IMG/VR virus record: IMGVR_UViG_3300005253_000516
Coordinates: 1-63,443 of that record
Length of the DNA stretch: 63,443 nt
Origin: a virus
Taxonomy: Duplodnaviria > Caudoviricetes
Reading direction: 5' to 3' (one strand)
Shown: positions 2,975-51,605 of the stretch, piece by piece
Numbering within the stretch: the stretch's first letter is position 1
How the letters are laid out: each line of letters opens with the position of its first letter
Notes under the pieces: model-generated
Seen by the model: only the letters and a program-made list of their open reading frames with translations
Told to the model about the DNA's origin: nothing
The model's database searches: none
Translations under genes and position numbers: made by a program

Positions 2975-3210
2975 TGTAGGCGTGTGCGGGTAGCCCTCCG
3001 CCACTTTCACGAGTGGCAACCTGTGAGTATCAGGCGGGAACGTAGGGTCCGACGCCTACATGATGAAACTGGGATGACAACCCAGGGAACGCACAACTAG
3101 GTGGGACCACACATGCCTCTTGAATCGATGGTAGAGGCGATGCGGAGGGCGTCTTGTCAACGCCTATGGAGTCCCATCGCCGAATCGCCTTTACCATCGG
3201 CACAGGAGGC
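2975..3210 (+). promoter_or_regulatory. Structured leader: multi-hairpin domain plus RBS-sequestering hairpin
   Basis: TGTAGGCGT/ACGCCTACA closes two internal hairpins (GCCACT/AGTGGC, CCTG/CAGG); GCCTCTTG..CGATGGTAGAGGCGAT pairs with ATCGCCTTTACCATCG..CAGGAGGC, covering the RBS. Confidence 0.65.
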
Positions 3211-3217
3211 TTCTGTT

Positions 3218-3730
3218 ATGGGTTGGATAAAGCTAGACGACCAGTTCCGTAATCATTCCAAGGTGCTGGCCGCCGGTCCTGATGGCGCGTGGCTCTACGT
3301 GTGTGGGCTATGCTACATCTCACAGCATGGCACCGGGGACTTTATTCCGGCGCGGGCTCTCGTAGAGCTGATGGAAAACCCAGACAATGACGTCGTTTGG
3401 CTCCGTCTAATACGCGCCAACTTGTGGCGCAAGGTACAAGATGGGTTCCGAATAGCTGACTGGCTCAACTGCGCGATTATGCCCAACCGCACCACGCAAG
3501 AAGCGCGCAAGTGCCGCGAGTACATCGCCTGGCGCAACGCTGTCAAACTCCGCGACCTGGACGTTTGCCAGGCTTGCGGCGAGTGGCAGGGCGAGTCACA
3601 CGCTCACCACATTTTGCCGTGGGCCTCGTTCCCAAGAGACCGCTTCGACGTTGACAACGGCCTGACGCTATGCGCCGAGTGTCACAAGGCGCTACACCGC
3701 GAAATGAGGGAGCATGCCGAAATGGCGTAA
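3218..3730 (+). CDS. Replication-initiator-like N-terminal domain fused to an HNH endonuclease
   Basis: MGWIKLDD..H.K..G.WLY..LCY N-terminus; RD..CQACG..HAHHI..DNGLTLCAECH HNH; AGGAGG RBS before ATG 3218. Confidence 0.8.
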   Translation: MGWIKLDDQFRNHSKVLAAGPDGAWLYVCGLCYISQHGTGDFIPARALVELMENPDNDVVWLRLIRANLWRKVQDGFRIADWLNCAIMPNRTTQEARKCREYIAWRNAVKLRDLDVCQACGEWQGESHAHHILPWASFPRDRFDVDNGLTLCAECHKALHREMREHAEMA

Positions 3731-15486: not shown

Positions 15487-15746
15487 CATCTCTCCCGTAG
15501 ACACGGCTGTATTCGCCCGCGTCGCGCCTGAGTTCGCCGAGGCCGTCGCGCGGTGCCAGAAGGATCGGTTGTTGAGCGGCATCAAAGTTCGCCGCATGGC
15601 CACGCAGATTCAAACGTATTTCGACATGGCGGGGATCAAAGACGGCGACATTTACTCCTTGCACTGGGACGGGATCGTGTTGGTCATGGGTGCGATGTAC
15701 ACGCTGGGAATCGAGAAGGGGCGGAGGAGCAAGGGGAGGAGAAAGC

Positions 15747-16292
15747 GTGGCTAAAACGATAGCCTACTCATGCGATAGCCGACGATGCGGCAACCGTTGC
15801 GAGAACGGCGACGATGGGTGGCACGAGTGGACATGGCGCGTGTTGCTGGAAGGGCAGGAAGTAGAAGCGACCGTCCACTTTTGCTCTCTTGGCTGTTTCA
15901 AGGCTTACATGGACAACTCGGGCTTTGTGGCTTGCAATGACGGAGAGAAACACTGGCAAACTTGGGTGTGGGATGCGCTGGACACCAATTGCAGAATGCG
16001 CGAGAGGGATCGTTGGTACACAGAGAACGAGTACGACGTGGTGTTGCTAGAGGTCGGGCCGAATCGAATCCAGGTAATGAAAGCGGTGAGGGACTTAACT
16101 GGCGCAGGATTGCGAGAGACGAAAGAAATGGTGGAGAACACGCCGTCAAAGATTATCGAAGCTGCCCAGCTCGTCCAAGCAGGCATGGCAGTGCATCGCA
16201 TTGCCGCACAAGGCGGCATCGCCACCCTGCTCACGTATCCGATGCGCTGGACGGCTGTGACAAGAGATGATCTGCCGATAGCATACGCGTAG
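15747..16292 (+). CDS. Zn-finger fused to a ribosomal protein bL12 (L7/L12) C-terminal-like domain
   Basis: CD..C..HFCSLGC, then YDVVLLEVGPNRIQVMKAVRDLTGAGLRETKEMVENTP. Confidence 0.8.
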   Translation: MAKTIAYSCDSRRCGNRCENGDDGWHEWTWRVLLEGQEVEATVHFCSLGCFKAYMDNSGFVACNDGEKHWQTWVWDALDTNCRMRERDRWYTENEYDVVLLEVGPNRIQVMKAVRDLTGAGLRETKEMVENTPSKIIEAAQLVQAGMAVHRIAAQGGIATLLTYPMRWTAVTRDDLPIAYA

Positions 16293-21384: not shown

Positions 21385-21386
21385 AT

Positions 21387-21458
21387 GGGCCGATAGCTCA
21401 AGGTAGAGCACGACTCTTAATAAGGTCGTGGTTGGCGGTTCAAGTCCGCCTCGGCCTA
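21387..21458 (+). tRNA. tRNA with an atypical 8-nt anticodon loop (Ile-like body; anticodon AAT or TAAT)
   Basis: Acceptor GGGCCGA/TCGGCCT+A73; D arm GCTC/GAGC; anticodon stem CGACT/GGTCG with loop CTTAATAA; T arm GGCGG-TTCAAGT-CCGCC; no encoded CCA. Confidence 0.85.
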
Positions 21459-21471
21459 TTGGTCGCAACGC

Positions 21472-22544: not shown

Positions 22545-23228
22545 GTGAGAGGTTACGACCAGCTACAGGCTAACCAACAACTGCTCCTCGACCTGCAATT
22601 GAAAGAAGCGACGGGCACGAACACTCAGGACTTTGCCAAGCTCCATCACGTTTGCACCCTCATCGGCACACCGACCTGGCAGGATCTCGACAACGGGCTT
22701 AGCTACCTCGACTTTGTGCCGGGCAACCCCGACTACATTCGCGCCCTCCAGGCCGCGACAACGGATCTCGACTTTACGTCGGGCGACTATTCCGCAGCGG
22801 TGTGGATCCGCCCCGACGCCCTCGGCAATCGCAACTTTATGACACGCGGCGTGGCCGCGACGGACGGTTGGGACTGGTGGATGGACGTCAACGGCGCCCA
22901 GAACGTGTCCACATTTCAGGCAGCCGCTTCGCAATTTACCCTCAGCGCCGCCGCCGACATAGTGGTCGGTACGTGGGGAATGATAGGTTTCTCACGCACG
23001 GGCGCGGCGATACGGACCTACAAAAACGGGCGGGACACCACGGCTACTGCGGCTACGCACATCGACCCGTTGACCGCGAACCGAAACCTTTACATCGGCG
23101 TGAACAACTTAGCCGCTGCTGGCTGGTACGACGGCGATATGTTTCGCCCGCGCATCTGGGGCAAACTCATGACGCCGCCAGAGTTCCGGTTGCTGTTTGA
23201 GATGGAGCGGGGGTTGTTCGGCCTATGA
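22545..23228 (+). CDS. LamG/concanavalin A-like virion protein
   Basis: SAAVWIRP..GTW..Y.NG..LYIG..G....RIW. Confidence 0.75.
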   Translation: MRGYDQLQANQQLLLDLQLKEATGTNTQDFAKLHHVCTLIGTPTWQDLDNGLSYLDFVPGNPDYIRALQAATTDLDFTSGDYSAAVWIRPDALGNRNFMTRGVAATDGWDWWMDVNGAQNVSTFQAAASQFTLSAAADIVVGTWGMIGFSRTGAAIRTYKNGRDTTATAATHIDPLTANRNLYIGVNNLAAAGWYDGDMFRPRIWGKLMTPPEFRLLFEMERGLFGL

Positions 23229-24697
23229 CGATTGATCTCGCCGGGCGACTGGCACGATTACGGGCCGCAATGCTAGCGATACCCGCATTCACGGGTGATA
23301 TTTGGTATATCGACGGGACTGATGGCGATGATGCCAACAGCGGACGGACACCCAGCCAGGCATATGTCACGATTGGCCAGGGTCTCATCTCCGCTGTAGC
23401 GGGGGATGCTATAGCCGTCAAAGCCGGAAACTATGACGAGATAGGACTTGATCTTGCATTAGATGGGCTAGAGCTCTGGTGCGAAATCGGTGTGCATATT
23501 GAGGATAGCACGCCAGGGACAGCTCTAGTTGTTTCCGGCGATCATTGCCGAGTCCAGGGAGCGCATTTCGAAGGGCCTGGGGCGATTGCTATTCAGGTAA
23601 CGGGCGATCACTGTTCCCTAGCAACATTGTTCGCAGAGAACGTCACCGTTGGATACGATATCGATGGCACCGATACCCTTATAGATCATACGATCAGCGC
23701 GGCACATACGGTCACAGGATATGATATTAGTGGACCCCAGACTATCATTCAGCATGCAGTTGCAAATGGGGTTGGTGGAGCGACGCGAGGATTCTATCTA
23801 TCAAATGCGGCAGCGGATTATTGCCTTTTAGAGGATTGCTCTTCGCTTGAGAATGCAACAGCGGGATATGAATGTGTAGTGGGAACCGCTGGCAATATGC
23901 TCCGTGAGTGTGTGAGCGGAGTTGGTGACGGAGATCGAATCGACCTCGATCCTAACAATTTCTGGGCGAACTATGTGCAGGAGATGGAGACAGAGCATAA
24001 CGAGCATGTATATCCGGTCCCAGATGGCGAAGGCACGGCAGGTGCAGCCGTCGAAGTCAATGCCGACGCTGAAGACGAAACACATGGCGCCGCAACGACG
24101 CAAAACTATTGGGGCGAGCCAACAGTGGTGCTACAGCCAGCAATACTCACATTGGCGTGGACATGGATTGGCATGAATATCTTTGCGACAACGACAGGCA
24201 AGGAGTTTCGGAGTCTCGCTTACAAGATTGATTATTCGCGGCGCTCTGCTCGCAATGCCGGCAACGCGTGGGACGAAGGCGAAACCGATTTGACGGTAGC
24301 CGATGGGTCAATATTCCAAACGGACGATCTGGTCTGGGTTTACTCGACCTACAAAACCGACGGTGAGATCGTCAAAGTGTCAAGTGTAGCAGGCCCAATC
24401 GTGACGGTTGTTCGCGAGACATCGCAATTCGGCGCGCCGAACACTGGATTACGCTGGAATCATACAATCAATGCCGCGGGCACCGAGATAATGTACCTGG
24501 TGCGGCGCGCCGGCGAGCAGATGTCAGAAGGCTACTTTTTCGATTTTGGTGCAGCCGGCGCACGCGACATGATCATAATGCGCTGGCATGAAGCCAAGCG
24601 GATGGACGGTAGTGATGGCGTACTTGTGCGAACGATCAATGGGTCGGATAGCGTGAACAATGGCCGTTTTGATTGTGCGCTAATCTACGGGGAATAG
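23225..24697 (+). CDS. Pectin-lyase-like beta-helix virion protein
   Basis: IWYIDGTDGDDANSGRTP..TI..GD.I.V..G.Y.E followed by beta-helix repeats. Confidence 0.75.
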   Translation: MTIDLAGRLARLRAAMLAIPAFTGDIWYIDGTDGDDANSGRTPSQAYVTIGQGLISAVAGDAIAVKAGNYDEIGLDLALDGLELWCEIGVHIEDSTPGTALVVSGDHCRVQGAHFEGPGAIAIQVTGDHCSLATLFAENVTVGYDIDGTDTLIDHTISAAHTVTGYDISGPQTIIQHAVANGVGGATRGFYLSNAAADYCLLEDCSSLENATAGYECVVGTAGNMLRECVSGVGDGDRIDLDPNNFWANYVQEMETEHNEHVYPVPDGEGTAGAAVEVNADAEDETHGAATTQNYWGEPTVVLQPAILTLAWTWIGMNIFATTTGKEFRSLAYKIDYSRRSARNAGNAWDEGETDLTVADGSIFQTDDLVWVYSTYKTDGEIVKVSSVAGPIVTVVRETSQFGAPNTGLRWNHTINAAGTEIMYLVRRAGEQMSEGYFFDFGAAGARDMIIMRWHEAKRMDGSDGVLVRTINGSDSVNNGRFDCALIYGE

Positions 24698-27867: not shown

Positions 27868-28626
27868 ATGGCTCTCATTGGCCAGGATGGGCATAAGCGC
27901 TGCTCGAAATGCAAGACGGTAAAAGACCGCGCTGCATTTGGAGTCTCGCGTGCATGTACGGATGGCCTGACGTGTTGGTGCAAGTCGTGCAAGAATGCCA
28001 AAGGCAAAGAGCGATACCATTCGGGCGATGGGAGCCGTGAGCACAAATTGAAACAGGCGAGCGAACGCAGGGCCAATGATCCAGGGGTTCGGGAAGAAAG
28101 GGCCGTTAAGAATGCTGCATGGTATGCAGAGCGAAAAGCAACAGACCCGGCATTCATGCAGACACGGCAGAAAAGAGATCAGGTTTGGCGTAAAAGGCAT
28201 CCTGAATCAGTAAAAGCCAAAGCCCAGAAGCAATGGGAGCATATCAGCTCTAGCCCGGAGCGTTTGGCCAAAAACAATAAGCGCCAACGTGAATATGGCC
28301 GCAACCGTTATGCGAATGATCCCGAATATCGTCAATGGCATCGCGACTACTATGCCCGCCGTCGCGCAACCAAACGTTCCAACGGCGGCACTTACGAACT
28401 AGAAGACTGGCAGACGATGTGTATGCTGGCCGACAATCGATGCGTAGCCTGTGGCAAAAAGCGCAAACTCACAGTGGATCACGTCTTGCCCATCATCATG
28501 GGCGGAGATAGCTATCTGACGAACTTGCAGCCACTATGTGATTCATGCAACAAGAGCAAGGGCCCTAAACACATCGACTATCGACCGGCCCGCATTCACC
28601 AATGGTTAGATGTCCTTACGGATTAG
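27868..28626 (+). CDS. HNH endonuclease
   Basis: KRCSKC..DGL..CKSC N-terminus; CVACG..LTVDHVLP..GG..NLQPLC.SCN.SK. Confidence 0.9.
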   Translation: MALIGQDGHKRCSKCKTVKDRAAFGVSRACTDGLTCWCKSCKNAKGKERYHSGDGSREHKLKQASERRANDPGVREERAVKNAAWYAERKATDPAFMQTRQKRDQVWRKRHPESVKAKAQKQWEHISSSPERLAKNNKRQREYGRNRYANDPEYRQWHRDYYARRRATKRSNGGTYELEDWQTMCMLADNRCVACGKKRKLTVDHVLPIIMGGDSYLTNLQPLCDSCNKSKGPKHIDYRPARIHQWLDVLTD

Positions 28627-35985: not shown

Positions 35986-36438
35986 ATGACCTGTAGCGGA
36001 GCATACGCAATGGCAGAGGAATACGCCCTGTTTTGGTGCCTGGACTGGCCCCCAGACGATTGCGCCGTTCAAGAGCGCATCGAACTGGCCTTGCGCGTCA
36101 CGGCTGGCCGCATCCATGTAGCCAGGTCCTCGGTAGGCGCTTGCGATTGCAGCCTCTCGACGGAGAGCCTGCAGATGCTCAAAGAAATGAACATGCAGCT
36201 TGCGGCCATCCTCTACAACTGTCCGTGCGGGGCGGCCAGAGGGCGGCTATCGGATGACATGAAGCAATCCCTGCTGCTCAACATCACCGAAATGCTCAAC
36301 ATGATTTCAGACGGTAGCTGGGAAGTCTGCGACGGTGAGACGGGCGCGAACTTTCCAGTGATGGCTACCGCCGAACGCGGCCTGACGGAGTGGAACGAAG
36401 CGCAGATCATCATCAATCGAGAATTGAGGGACGGGTAA
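35986..36438 (+). CDS. Head-tail connector (putative)
   Basis: YA..EY N-terminus, helical, typical position. Confidence 0.55.
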   Translation: MTCSGAYAMAEEYALFWCLDWPPDDCAVQERIELALRVTAGRIHVARSSVGACDCSLSTESLQMLKEMNMQLAAILYNCPCGAARGRLSDDMKQSLLLNITEMLNMISDGSWEVCDGETGANFPVMATAERGLTEWNEAQIIINRELRDG

Positions 36439-36632
36439 TGCCAGAATGGACCAGCGCCGAGGAGACCACCCCACAGGATGGCCAGCTTGTCTACGTGTTC
36501 AACGAGGGCATAGGCGTCCAAAAAGGACGCTACGAAGAGAATGACCGGGGGAACATTTGGTCCCCCGACGGAAGCCTCGTTACACATTGGATGCCACGCA
36601 AACCAGATCCAGACGAAGGGGAAGCGGACTAG
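36438..36632 (+). CDS. DUF551-like small protein
   Basis: W.S....P..GQ.V.V..VTHWMP. Confidence 0.7.
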   Translation: MPEWTSAEETTPQDGQLVYVFNEGIGVQKGRYEENDRGNIWSPDGSLVTHWMPRKPDPDEGEAD

Positions 36633-36938
36633 ATGGGTTGAGGCGGGGGAGGCGGCAGTCGCCGCAGGCGGGCCGGTGTGGCTCGCGCAGTGGAATCAGG
36701 CCCGATCTTTGGCATGTACGGGCTGTCGAAGATCGAATATCTGGGAAGCCTAAAGGGTACGTGGAAGGGCTCCGAGACGTGCCATCCCTACCCGTTCGGG
36801 CCTGAGAAGCGTGTGAGTTGGGTCGATCCGCGCGACCAGGATGTGCTGCTAGAGCAGAAAGACGAGGCCGGGGACCCGTGGTTCAGATTGTTGAGCGAGC
36901 CGGAGGATTGGCGTGGTCGTACTCGTAAAGGCTATTAA
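36633..36938 (+). CDS. Structural-operon protein with in-frame UGA at codon 3 (selenocysteine candidate)
   Basis: TAG-ATG coupling, then ATG GGT TGA GGC GGG GGA.., in frame with ORF 36678-36938; hairpin GCGGC-AGTC-GCCGC starts 10 nt after the TGA. Confidence 0.6.
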
Positions 36939-37440
36939 AGCGCCGCGCTTGCGCGACGATGCTATGCGCCTCGTGCTACTCAACGCCATGCGCAAGGCCG
37001 GGCGATTTCTGGTCAAGACCGATTTCAAGAAGACGACCAAGACGTGGAAACATCAGCCAAAGTTCGAAACGCTCATCAGCCTAAAGCCGCCAGGCCCGAC
37101 GATCCTGATTGGGACGGATGACCAGGTGTGGAACTGGCTCAACGAGGGCACGCGGCCACACGCGATATTCGCCGGGATCTTTACGGGCAAGAGCAACAAA
37201 AAGGCGCTAGCTTTTCCGAGTCGATTCAAACCAAAGACGAGAGTAAAGAGTCTCAAATCACAAGCAGGCTCAAGCGGCGGCCCGACAGTCGTTGTGCCGT
37301 TCGTACAACATCCTGGCACGGAGGCTAGAGAATGGGGTCAACTGATCGCGACGAAACGGCAACGGTGGTTTCAAAAGCAGATGGAGCGAGCGATGGCGGA
37401 CGCAGCCCACGCAAGCGGGCACGGCCAAAGGTCGCCGTAA
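36913..37440 (+). CDS. Neck/tail completion protein (HK97 gp10-like)
   Basis: LNEGTRPH.I..KALAF..V.HPGT.AR. Confidence 0.75.
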   Translation: MVVLVKAIKAPRLRDDAMRLVLLNAMRKAGRFLVKTDFKKTTKTWKHQPKFETLISLKPPGPTILIGTDDQVWNWLNEGTRPHAIFAGIFTGKSNKKALAFPSRFKPKTRVKSLKSQAGSSGGPTVVVPFVQHPGTEAREWGQLIATKRQRWFQKQMERAMADAAHASGHGQRSP

Positions 37441-51104: not shown

Positions 51105-51122
51105 TGCGTCTTGGAGGCAATC

Positions 51123-51605
51123 ATGAAAGAGATACCGCTGTCGAAGGGATACGTTGCCCTTGTTGACGATGAAGACTATGAGGAGTTGATGCGATACAAG
51201 TGGCATGTGGGTAGCTATGGACCACGCCCACATGCCATGAGGAAGGTGCGGCCGGCGGAGGGGGAAACCGTCACGCGCATAGCTATGCACCGTCAAATCA
51301 CGGGCGCGCCAAAAGGCATGGACGTGGATCATATCAATCATCAGACGCTAGACAACCAACGCGCCAATCTGAGAGTCTGCACGCGCAGCCAGAACATGAT
51401 GAACATGCGCAAGCGCCCCGGATGCTCTAGTCGGTTCAAAGGGGTTTGCTGGAACAAGGCCAATGACAACTGGATAGCTTACATCATGGTGAACTATTGC
51501 CAAAAGACGATAGGCTACTTTGATGACGAAGTAGACGCTGCCTGCGCATACAACGCAGAGGCTCGCGTCAAGTTCCGCGAGTTCGCGTTGCTGAATGATG
51601 TGTAG
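51123..51605 (+). CDS. HNH endonuclease with AP2 domain (paralog of 242-718)
   Basis: MKEIPLSKG..VDHINHQTLDNQRANLR..SSRFKGV..GYF..AYN. Confidence 0.9.
   Translation: MKEIPLSKGYVALVDDEDYEELMRYKWHVGSYGPRPHAMRKVRPAEGETVTRIAMHRQITGAPKGMDVDHINHQTLDNQRANLRVCTRSQNMMNMRKRPGCSSRFKGVCWNKANDNWIAYIMVNYCQKTIGYFDDEVDAACAYNAEARVKFREFALLNDV

Follow-up and report, generated by a model that had tools for sequence, protein, structure and literature searches.

The locus and its reading frame

The window considered here is the whole of a 63,443-nucleotide virus record (IMGVR_UViG_3300005253_000516; 63.4 kb, complete-looking, with a guanine-cytosine (GC) content of 58.6%), and the subject of this analysis is a small gene on its + strand that may begin at an ATG at 36633 and carry an in-frame TGA at codon 3 as a candidate codon for selenocysteine (Sec). 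The first-pass annotation of the window had reported a TAG abutting the triplets ATG-GGT-TGA, an open frame beyond them, and a purine-rich run upstream, and all of these are present. The TAG of the upstream gene (36630-36632) directly abuts the ATG, and past the TGA the frame is open to a TAA at 36936-36938, giving 101 codons in total. The called open reading frame (ORF) begins 15 codons downstream of this ATG, at GTG 36678 (codon 16). The elements of the locus are as follows.

36633..36938, + strand: proposed full gene of 101 codons; translated with TGA as Sec (U), it would read Met-Gly-UGA(Sec), a Gly-rich stretch, four Arg, and a conserved core domain
36616..36624, + strand: Shine-Dalgarno-like purine run AAGGGGAAG, 8 nucleotides before ATG 36633
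36633-36635 and 36636-36638, + strand: ATG and GGT, in frame with ORF 36678-36938
36639..36641, + strand: candidate Sec codon, an in-frame TGA at codon 3; kept without change in the window and in the related loci L002-L006
36652..36665, + strand: hairpin 1, with a 5-bp stem GCGGC/GCCGC and loop AGUC, starting 10 nucleotides after the UGA
36668..36686, + strand: hairpin 2, with a 7-bp stem GCGGGCC/GGCUCGC and loop GGUGU (GGUAU in relatives)
36678..36680, + strand: codon 16, GTG in the window and L002 and ATG in L003-L006; the gene-finder start and a possible internal start

Shine-Dalgarno-like motifs at a comparable distance precede other genes of the same phage, and the ribosome-binding motif is better at ATG 36633 than at codon 16, which is without any in three of the related loci (L003, L005, and L006). 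The GTG of the window is preceded merely by AGGCGGG, in agreement with the earlier remark that it has no clear ribosome-binding site. Between the TGA and codon 16 there is no start-type codon (ATG, GTG, TTG, or CTG), and the ribosome-binding site, AUG, UGA, two hairpins, and internal start are all packed within 70 nucleotides. The gene most likely begins at ATG 36633 and not at GTG 36678.

The first-pass annotation had also claimed that UGA is a normal stop elsewhere in this genome, and the counts bear this out. TGA is the commonest ordinary stop among ORFs of at least 150 amino acids, ending 20 of 48, and it closes 37 of the 90 ORFs in a greedy non-overlapping set; global recoding of TGA is ruled out by the many ORFs of the window that end in it. 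The nearest upstream in-frame stop is TGA in 44 of the 90 ORFs. An in-frame ATG lies within 10 codons before an upstream TGA in six of the 90, and only the candidate gene has its ATG at two codons. A scan for TGA-joined open frames elsewhere in the window was uninformative in this GC-rich genome.

Close relatives and distant cysteine-bearing relatives

A protein search returned three close relatives of 86 amino acids and one of 62, the latter with an 86-amino-acid cluster mate; all are called from codon 16 or later. A metagenome scan provided six loci (L002-L007), of which L002-L006 cover the site; L007 does not, as it begins within the ORF. The ATG-GGT-TGA and the frame are kept in all six covering sequences (the window and L002-L006), with no further stop and no indel, and the conserved TGA at codon 3, which the first-pass annotation had named as evidence for its call, is therefore present in every one of them. 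Identity between the relatives and the window is 77-91% over codons 17-101; in the 45 nucleotides from the ATG to codon 16 they match it at 41-45 of 45 positions. Variable sites number 4 of 36 in codons 4-15 versus 78 of 219 in codons 17-89 (Fisher p 0.0034), and the corresponding figures for third positions are 2 of 12 versus 44 of 73 (p 0.0099). The four changes in codons 4-15 comprise two synonymous changes, one Gly/Ser, and one Arg/Lys. This pattern indicates that the 12 codons after the TGA are under purifying selection, and the persistence of the extension in intact, invariant form throughout the clade is most simply explained by its still being translated. Along the alignment of about 1000 columns, the most invariant 45-nucleotide window starts at 36631-36633 (41 of 45 positions). 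Codons 90-96 of the candidate gene are likewise invariant, because the start of the next gene (GGAGG and GTG, 36902..36915) overlaps them.

The sequence upstream of the site is of a different character. L003 and L004 carry a different upstream gene, which ends in another frame, and they become homologous to the window only from 36629 onward, immediately ahead of the ATG; the upstream gene of L005 likewise terminates in another frame. In general, the relatives have another gene, another frame, or no gene upstream of the site. In contigs of three further marine-sediment runs, the sequence preceding 36629 or 36633 departs from that of the window, and at least three other contexts are found there. 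Every context, whatever its upstream gene, keeps a GGGG, GAGG, or GGAG run 5-15 nucleotides before the same ATG. Because the homology boundary lies at the ATG across contexts, the mobile unit would start at this ATG and not at codon 16. Read-through fusion with the upstream gene was rejected, as the frame relation is not kept in L003, L004, and L005, and coding in the other two frames was rejected because of stops there in L003 and L005.

Variants in four other runs were taken from 40 of the 88 rows listed. Among these 40, the only variants within 36633-36678 are two G-to-A changes, at 36667 and 36678, and none falls at the TGA; the change at 36678, which makes codon 16 ATG, is dominant in two of the other runs among the rows listed. 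Scans of viral contigs for more relative DNA gave nothing usable, and their sole match (L009) was discarded as spurious, since it consists of 18 residues on the antisense strand of a 333-amino-acid gene. A scan of genome contigs gave one 16-residue match, in a metagenome-assembled genome of Spirochaetia (L008).

To place the N-terminus in a wider family, distant relatives were collected by a profile search of 1.84 billion representatives, which gave 56 relatives at E <=0.001, mostly of 55-97 amino acids; a further homologous-protein search added no new relatives beyond this first set. In the resulting alignment of 55 sequences (A5), N-terminal length was counted up to an anchor, the first conserved Gly. 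It amounts to 22-28 residues in six relatives, and all of these start with Met-x-Cys..Cys followed by Lys/Arg (M-G-C-C-G-G, M-G-C-C-G-K, M-A-C-G-C-S, M-P-C-Y-W-C, M-A-C-S-T-C, and M-P-G-C-C-G). The Cys pair lies in residues 3-6 of all six, and five of the six have a Cys at residue 3. By comparison, none of the 47 relatives with shorter N-termini has a Cys in its first eight residues. With 26 residues ahead of the anchor Gly, the long reading of the window falls in the range of the Cys relatives (22-28); its UGA is at residue 3, and four Arg directly follow the Gly/Ser stretch. Two of the Cys relatives also start with Met-Gly, and Met-Gly is all that stands upstream of the UGA, where it is invariant in the clade of the window. 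Further along, the RRRR-A-G-V of the window, which lies upstream of and across the GTG, matches the M-RRRR-V-A-G-V of relative P0013 and the [A/R]-G-V starts of eight others, and codon 16 aligns with the Val of this motif. Cys homologs at codon 3 were the other observation that the first-pass annotation had proposed to look for, and they occur among the relatives with long N-termini. These alignments suggest that the extension is at least derived from a coding N-terminus of the Cys type.

Homologs that start downstream had been put forward as evidence against the call, and such starts were seen in part: short N-termini are called in every close relative and in 47 of the other 53 rows of A5. 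These are gene-finder calls, however, and a gene finder cannot read through TGA. Separately, 14 of the 54 relatives in A5 are called with no residue before the anchor Gly, and several more start exactly at the basic stretch. Many gene calls in the family look truncated, and upstream TGA codons hidden from the gene finder are one possible cause.

Hairpins, proposed selenocysteine insertion, and rival explanations

Two hairpins follow the UGA. Hairpin 1 is the GCGGC-AGUC-GCCGC stem 10 nucleotides past the UGA to which the first-pass annotation had drawn attention, and it is present at 36652-36665. It is predicted in both single-sequence and consensus folds, it has a G at loop position 2, and its sole change among the sequences, C to U at 36665, retains a G-U pair. 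Its spacing resembles that of Escherichia coli fdhF. Hairpin 2 carries codon 16 (GTG or ATG) at its loop-stem junction. Its variation amounts to three pairs with one-sided, pairing-preserving changes (four sequence-instances), and no pair is broken. A consensus model of the bacterial selenocysteine insertion sequence (bSECIS), as quoted in a 2026 review, specifies an apical loop of 3-9 nucleotides, a stem of 4-16 bp, a G in the first two loop positions, a UGA-to-loop distance of 16-37 nucleotides, and a minimum free energy of <= -7.5 kcal/mol (PMC13188914). These rules were scored with our own ungapped-stem implementation of the published rules, not with bSECISearch. Hairpin 2 passes all four bSECIS criteria, with a 5-nucleotide GGUGU loop, a leading G, 33-nucleotide spacing, and -11.9 kcal/mol. 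Hairpin 2, which fits throughout, was absent from the earlier proposal of a SECIS-like hairpin. A hairpin structure is compatible with the data but unproven.

The reading that we favor has about an even chance of being correct: the gene would encode a 101-residue protein starting at ATG 36633, with Sec inserted at residue 3 by way of host SelB and one of the two hairpins. It builds on the conserved ATG, TGA, frame, and nucleotides, on Cys at the aligned residue, and on a hairpin that fits the consensus; from these we infer both that the UGA is decoded at all and that the residue is Sec and not another amino acid. Host ribosomes would load at the Shine-Dalgarno-like run before ATG 36633 and, with the UGA of codon 3 in the A site, an in-ORF hairpin just downstream would hold host SelB with Sec-tRNA(Sec). 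Sec would be inserted, and translation would go on through the hairpins. The tail produced in this way would consist of Met-Gly-Sec, a Gly-rich stretch, and four Arg, comparable to the Met-x-Cys..Cys and Lys/Arg of the distant relatives. As for the role of a Sec/Cys tail, redox chemistry, metal binding, or cross-linking would be our guess.

Such decoding implies a host that possesses selA, selB, selC, and selD. The capsid protein is 24-27% identical to those of cultured phages that infect many hosts and phyla, and so gives no host call. No match was found in the cultured-phage database for the window DNA, the candidate protein, its relative P0059, or the terminase-like ORF 23225-24694. In the protein atlas, the DnaB of the phage falls with viral and Pseudomonadota clusters, which is a lead only. 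The runs listed as holding the stretch are all marine sediment or marine metagenome, come from three studies, and include no RNA data sets; Sec-using bacteria are common in marine sediment. The sole tRNA gene of the phage, at 21386-21459 (+), scores 58.3 bits against the Rfam tRNA family and has an 8-nucleotide anticodon loop, for which ARAGORN gives a four-base anticodon and no amino acid. This tRNA, which is not tRNA-Sec, might be a decoder related to frameshifts or stops; it was ruled out as the reader of the UGA by its 8-nucleotide loop without UCA.

A number of points weigh against Sec insertion. The partner Cys of the pair is Gly in the window (U-G-G-G), leaving a lone Sec, and with two codons only before the UGA a test of conservation on both sides is barely applicable. 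Many family members are called from about codon 16 or later, so a short form is viable, and codon 16 is ATG in four of the six sequences though the family has Val, so that it may serve as a start. Searches of the phage for tRNA-Sec (RF01852) and selB (TIGR00475) gave 0 hits each. Hairpin 1 has a spacing of 15 nucleotides, one short of the 16-37 range, and in this respect the first-pass proposal fell short. There is no compensatory change in either hairpin among the six sequences and no match at 36600-36740 to any Rfam family, those of SECIS elements included. As blocks of the next gene have up to 40 of 45 positions invariant, such nucleotide conservation is not confined to this site, and the 45-nucleotide stretch is conserved to the degree of a well-conserved coding block and not as an outlier. 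Across the window, about 5% of TGA triplets have a hairpin that passes the SECIS rules (+ strand, 53 of 990; - strand, 44 of 853), and the 68-nucleotide fold is no stabler than its shuffles (z 0.26; 117 of 200 shuffles are equally or more stable). Judged from this genome alone, the pattern does not exceed chance; it is the comparison with relatives that raises the feature above that level. No selenoprotein of a virus of bacteria is named in the full-text literature searched, and the prior is low. In the available part of a 2026 review of prokaryotic selenoproteomes, the words "phage", "virus", and "viral" have 0 occurrences (PMC13188914).

The main rival, which we hold to be quite possible if less so than Sec insertion, is that translation really stops at the UGA. 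TGA would have arisen by mutation from an ancestral Cys codon, TGC or TGT, and an 86-residue protein would be made from codon 16, which is where gene finders call all the close relatives and which is ATG in four of the six sequences, as well as in most listed contigs of two runs, in place of the family Val. The 47 short rows of A5 likewise suggest that the core alone is viable. In this explanation, the old ribosome-binding site and ATG-GGT-TGA would survive as a two-codon mini-ORF, with re-initiation 36 nucleotides downstream and the hairpins serving as a control leader; the position of codon 16 within hairpin 2 is what one would expect of a hairpin that controls translation. The bar minigenes of phage lambda, which have two codons, provide a precedent: like the locus, they have a Shine-Dalgarno motif followed by AUG, a single sense codon, and a stop. 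Unlike in those minigenes, the sequence after the stop remains in frame here, purifying selection acts on it, and it shows homology to the N-terminal part of relatives. For re-initiation, the frame and sequence of the spacer should be immaterial. Nevertheless, the six diverged sequences agree at 32 of its 36 positions, none of them has acquired an indel or stop within it, its changes are two synonymous, one Gly/Ser, and one Arg/Lys, and it still reads as the RRRR-A-G-V of the family. Moreover, codon 16 is without a Shine-Dalgarno motif in three of the six sequences and is buried in a hairpin of -11.9 kcal/mol, and a gap of 36 nucleotides is long for translational coupling.

Decoding of the UGA as something other than Sec would account equally well for the evidence of a translated N-terminal extension, and we regard it as unlikely. 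It could take the form of near-cognate read-through, of the kind by which leaky UGA gives the A1 protein of RNA phage Q-beta, or, as is reported to occur in some bacteria, of SelB-dependent Cys insertion by a tRNA(Cys) whose anticodon is UCA. A minor long form and a major short form would then be made, and the usable internal start fits such a two-product design. However, the aligned residue in relatives is Cys, the classic Sec replacement; a hairpin that fits the bSECIS model stands at the right distance, invariant hairpins would not be needed for read-through alone, and the sole phage tRNA, with its 8-nucleotide loop, lacks the UCA of a UGA reader. Ribosome hopping of the T4 gene 60 type, from GGU 36636-36638 to GGU 36675-36677 with 36 nucleotides (12 codons) skipped, has matched take-off and landing codons, a stop right after take-off, and a hairpin in the gap, all of them invariant. 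We nevertheless consider it very improbable, since gene 60 needs a nascent-peptide signal and the nascent chain here is two residues, hairpin 1 leaves out the take-off codon, and the skipped stretch, unlike a non-coding gap, has protein-level homology to relatives. Finally, Sec insertion and the short form might be joined in a selenium-dependent two-product switch, a proposal that is unlikely. With Sec-tRNA and SelB present, hairpin 2 would be melted and the 101-residue selenoprotein made; in their absence, Met-Gly would be released and the 86-residue form, which has no tail, produced by re-initiation at codon 16. If this were true, the SECIS and the internal start would be one RNA element, with AUG/GUG in the loop of hairpin 2, and the apparently truncated calls in the family may hide further Sec forms.

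Under the Sec reading, the candidate invites comparison with bacterial selenoprotein genes, for which E. coli fdhF is the prototype. It shares with them a conserved in-frame UGA, Cys in distant homologs, fewer synonymous changes 3' of the UGA, and a stem-loop with a leading loop G, here 33 nucleotides after the UGA. It differs in that its carrier is a phage without tRNA-Sec or selB, in that the UGA is codon 3 with only Met-Gly before it, in that the residue would lie in a disordered Gly/Arg tail and not in a thioredoxin-like or enzyme active site, and in that it has no partner Cys and a possible internal start inside the candidate SECIS. Among viruses, the only selenoproteins named in a review of recoding are the poxvirus glutathione peroxidases of molluscum contagiosum and fowlpox viruses (PMC8310308). 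These too are virus genes whose UGA is read by host machinery, as proposed here, and the fowlpox SECIS lies within the coding region; in contrast to the candidate, a phage-specific small family with a bacterial-type hairpin, they are captured cellular genes of eukaryotic viruses that rely on a eukaryotic SECIS and SBP2 (PMC8310308). Sec recoding in bacteria is known, and what would be new is the phage carrier and the position at codon 3 of a Cys-pair tail. If the proposal is true, this would be among the first selenium proteins proposed for a virus of bacteria. Its confirmation would mean that phages exploit host Sec recoding, that Sec can be inserted two codons past the start, and that gene finders systematically truncate such genes. 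The compact 100-nucleotide cassette is a testable object.

Protein family and gene neighborhood

The locus defines an undescribed family of small phage proteins with an N-terminal Cys pair and a basic tail. No Pfam or PHROG family matches the core encoded by 36678-36938, and none matches twelve of its relatives, except for glycosyltransferase domains in fused forms and two sub-threshold matches (ComX for P0053 and phrog_10689 for P0049). In the protein atlas, the candidate protein falls with viral hypothetical clusters only. Profile matches in the PDB were confined to designed repeat proteins ("Cake" and "Scone"); no single stretch was significant, and the matches were judged uninformative. 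An AlphaFold model has a compact core at residues 30-90, made of four strands, a helix, and a strand, with a predicted local distance difference test (pLDDT) score of 83-89; the Gly/Arg-rich tail scores 57-61 and is predicted to be disordered. The model points to a small beta-rich core domain behind an N-terminal tail. Foldseek gave no match to it at E <=0.001, and VIA-align gave a best Z of 4.9, with tied weak rows below the stated noise level of the tool that include Bacillus subtilis YqbF and the C-terminal domain of lambda gpFI.

Three relatives, P0042 (606 amino acids), P0063 (560), and P0019 (479), are glycosyltransferase-linked members of this small-protein family. In two of them, the Met-Cys-Cys start and the core domain follow in frame on a GT2 glycosyltransferase ORF, and in the third a glycosyltransferase-like region is followed by two core domains. 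These GT2 fusions hint at a functional link between the family and glycosylation.

The window as a whole encodes a DnaB, an HK97/Mu-type capsid protein, tail-fiber-like genes, and a tape-measure gene of 1608 amino acids (Pfam and PHROG profiles). The candidate gene lies between the tail-fiber-like genes and the tape-measure gene, amid small genes without known function. The first-pass annotation had placed it in a head-tail block, which is a loose description: its flanks are tail-fiber-like genes and the tape-measure gene, with small genes around it. The immediate neighbors are the following.

36438..36632, + strand: upstream gene of 64 amino acids, DUF551-like (weak; PF04448, E 6e-4; phrog_924, E 2.3e-6)
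36913-37440, + strand: next gene, with a GTG start that lies inside the 3' end of the candidate ORF and a GGAGG at 36902-36906

The match of the upstream gene to DUF551 (PF04448) scores 21.0 bits, under the Pfam gathering cutoff of 22, and the gene is accordingly termed DUF551-like only; it stands outside the candidate unit. The junction preceding this gene is tight as well, a TAA stop at 36436-36438 overlapping the ATG at 36438. The N-terminus of the next gene, in its own frame, is kept in all loci. No promoter-like sites and no + strand terminator-like sites were found near the candidate locus.

Elsewhere in the window there are three HNH endonuclease ORFs (3101-3730, 27868-28626, and 51111-51605, all +), one of them right behind the major capsid gene. 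A DUF3800-VII RNA motif (RF02967) at 2975-3065 (+) scores 47.5 bits, above the gathering score, and lies just 5' of the HNH ORF at 3101-3730. A C-terminal domain of ribosomal protein L7/L12 (PF00542, E 1.5e-13), which in the ribosome stalk serves to recruit translational GTPases, is encoded by the 200-amino-acid ORF at 15690-16292 (+).

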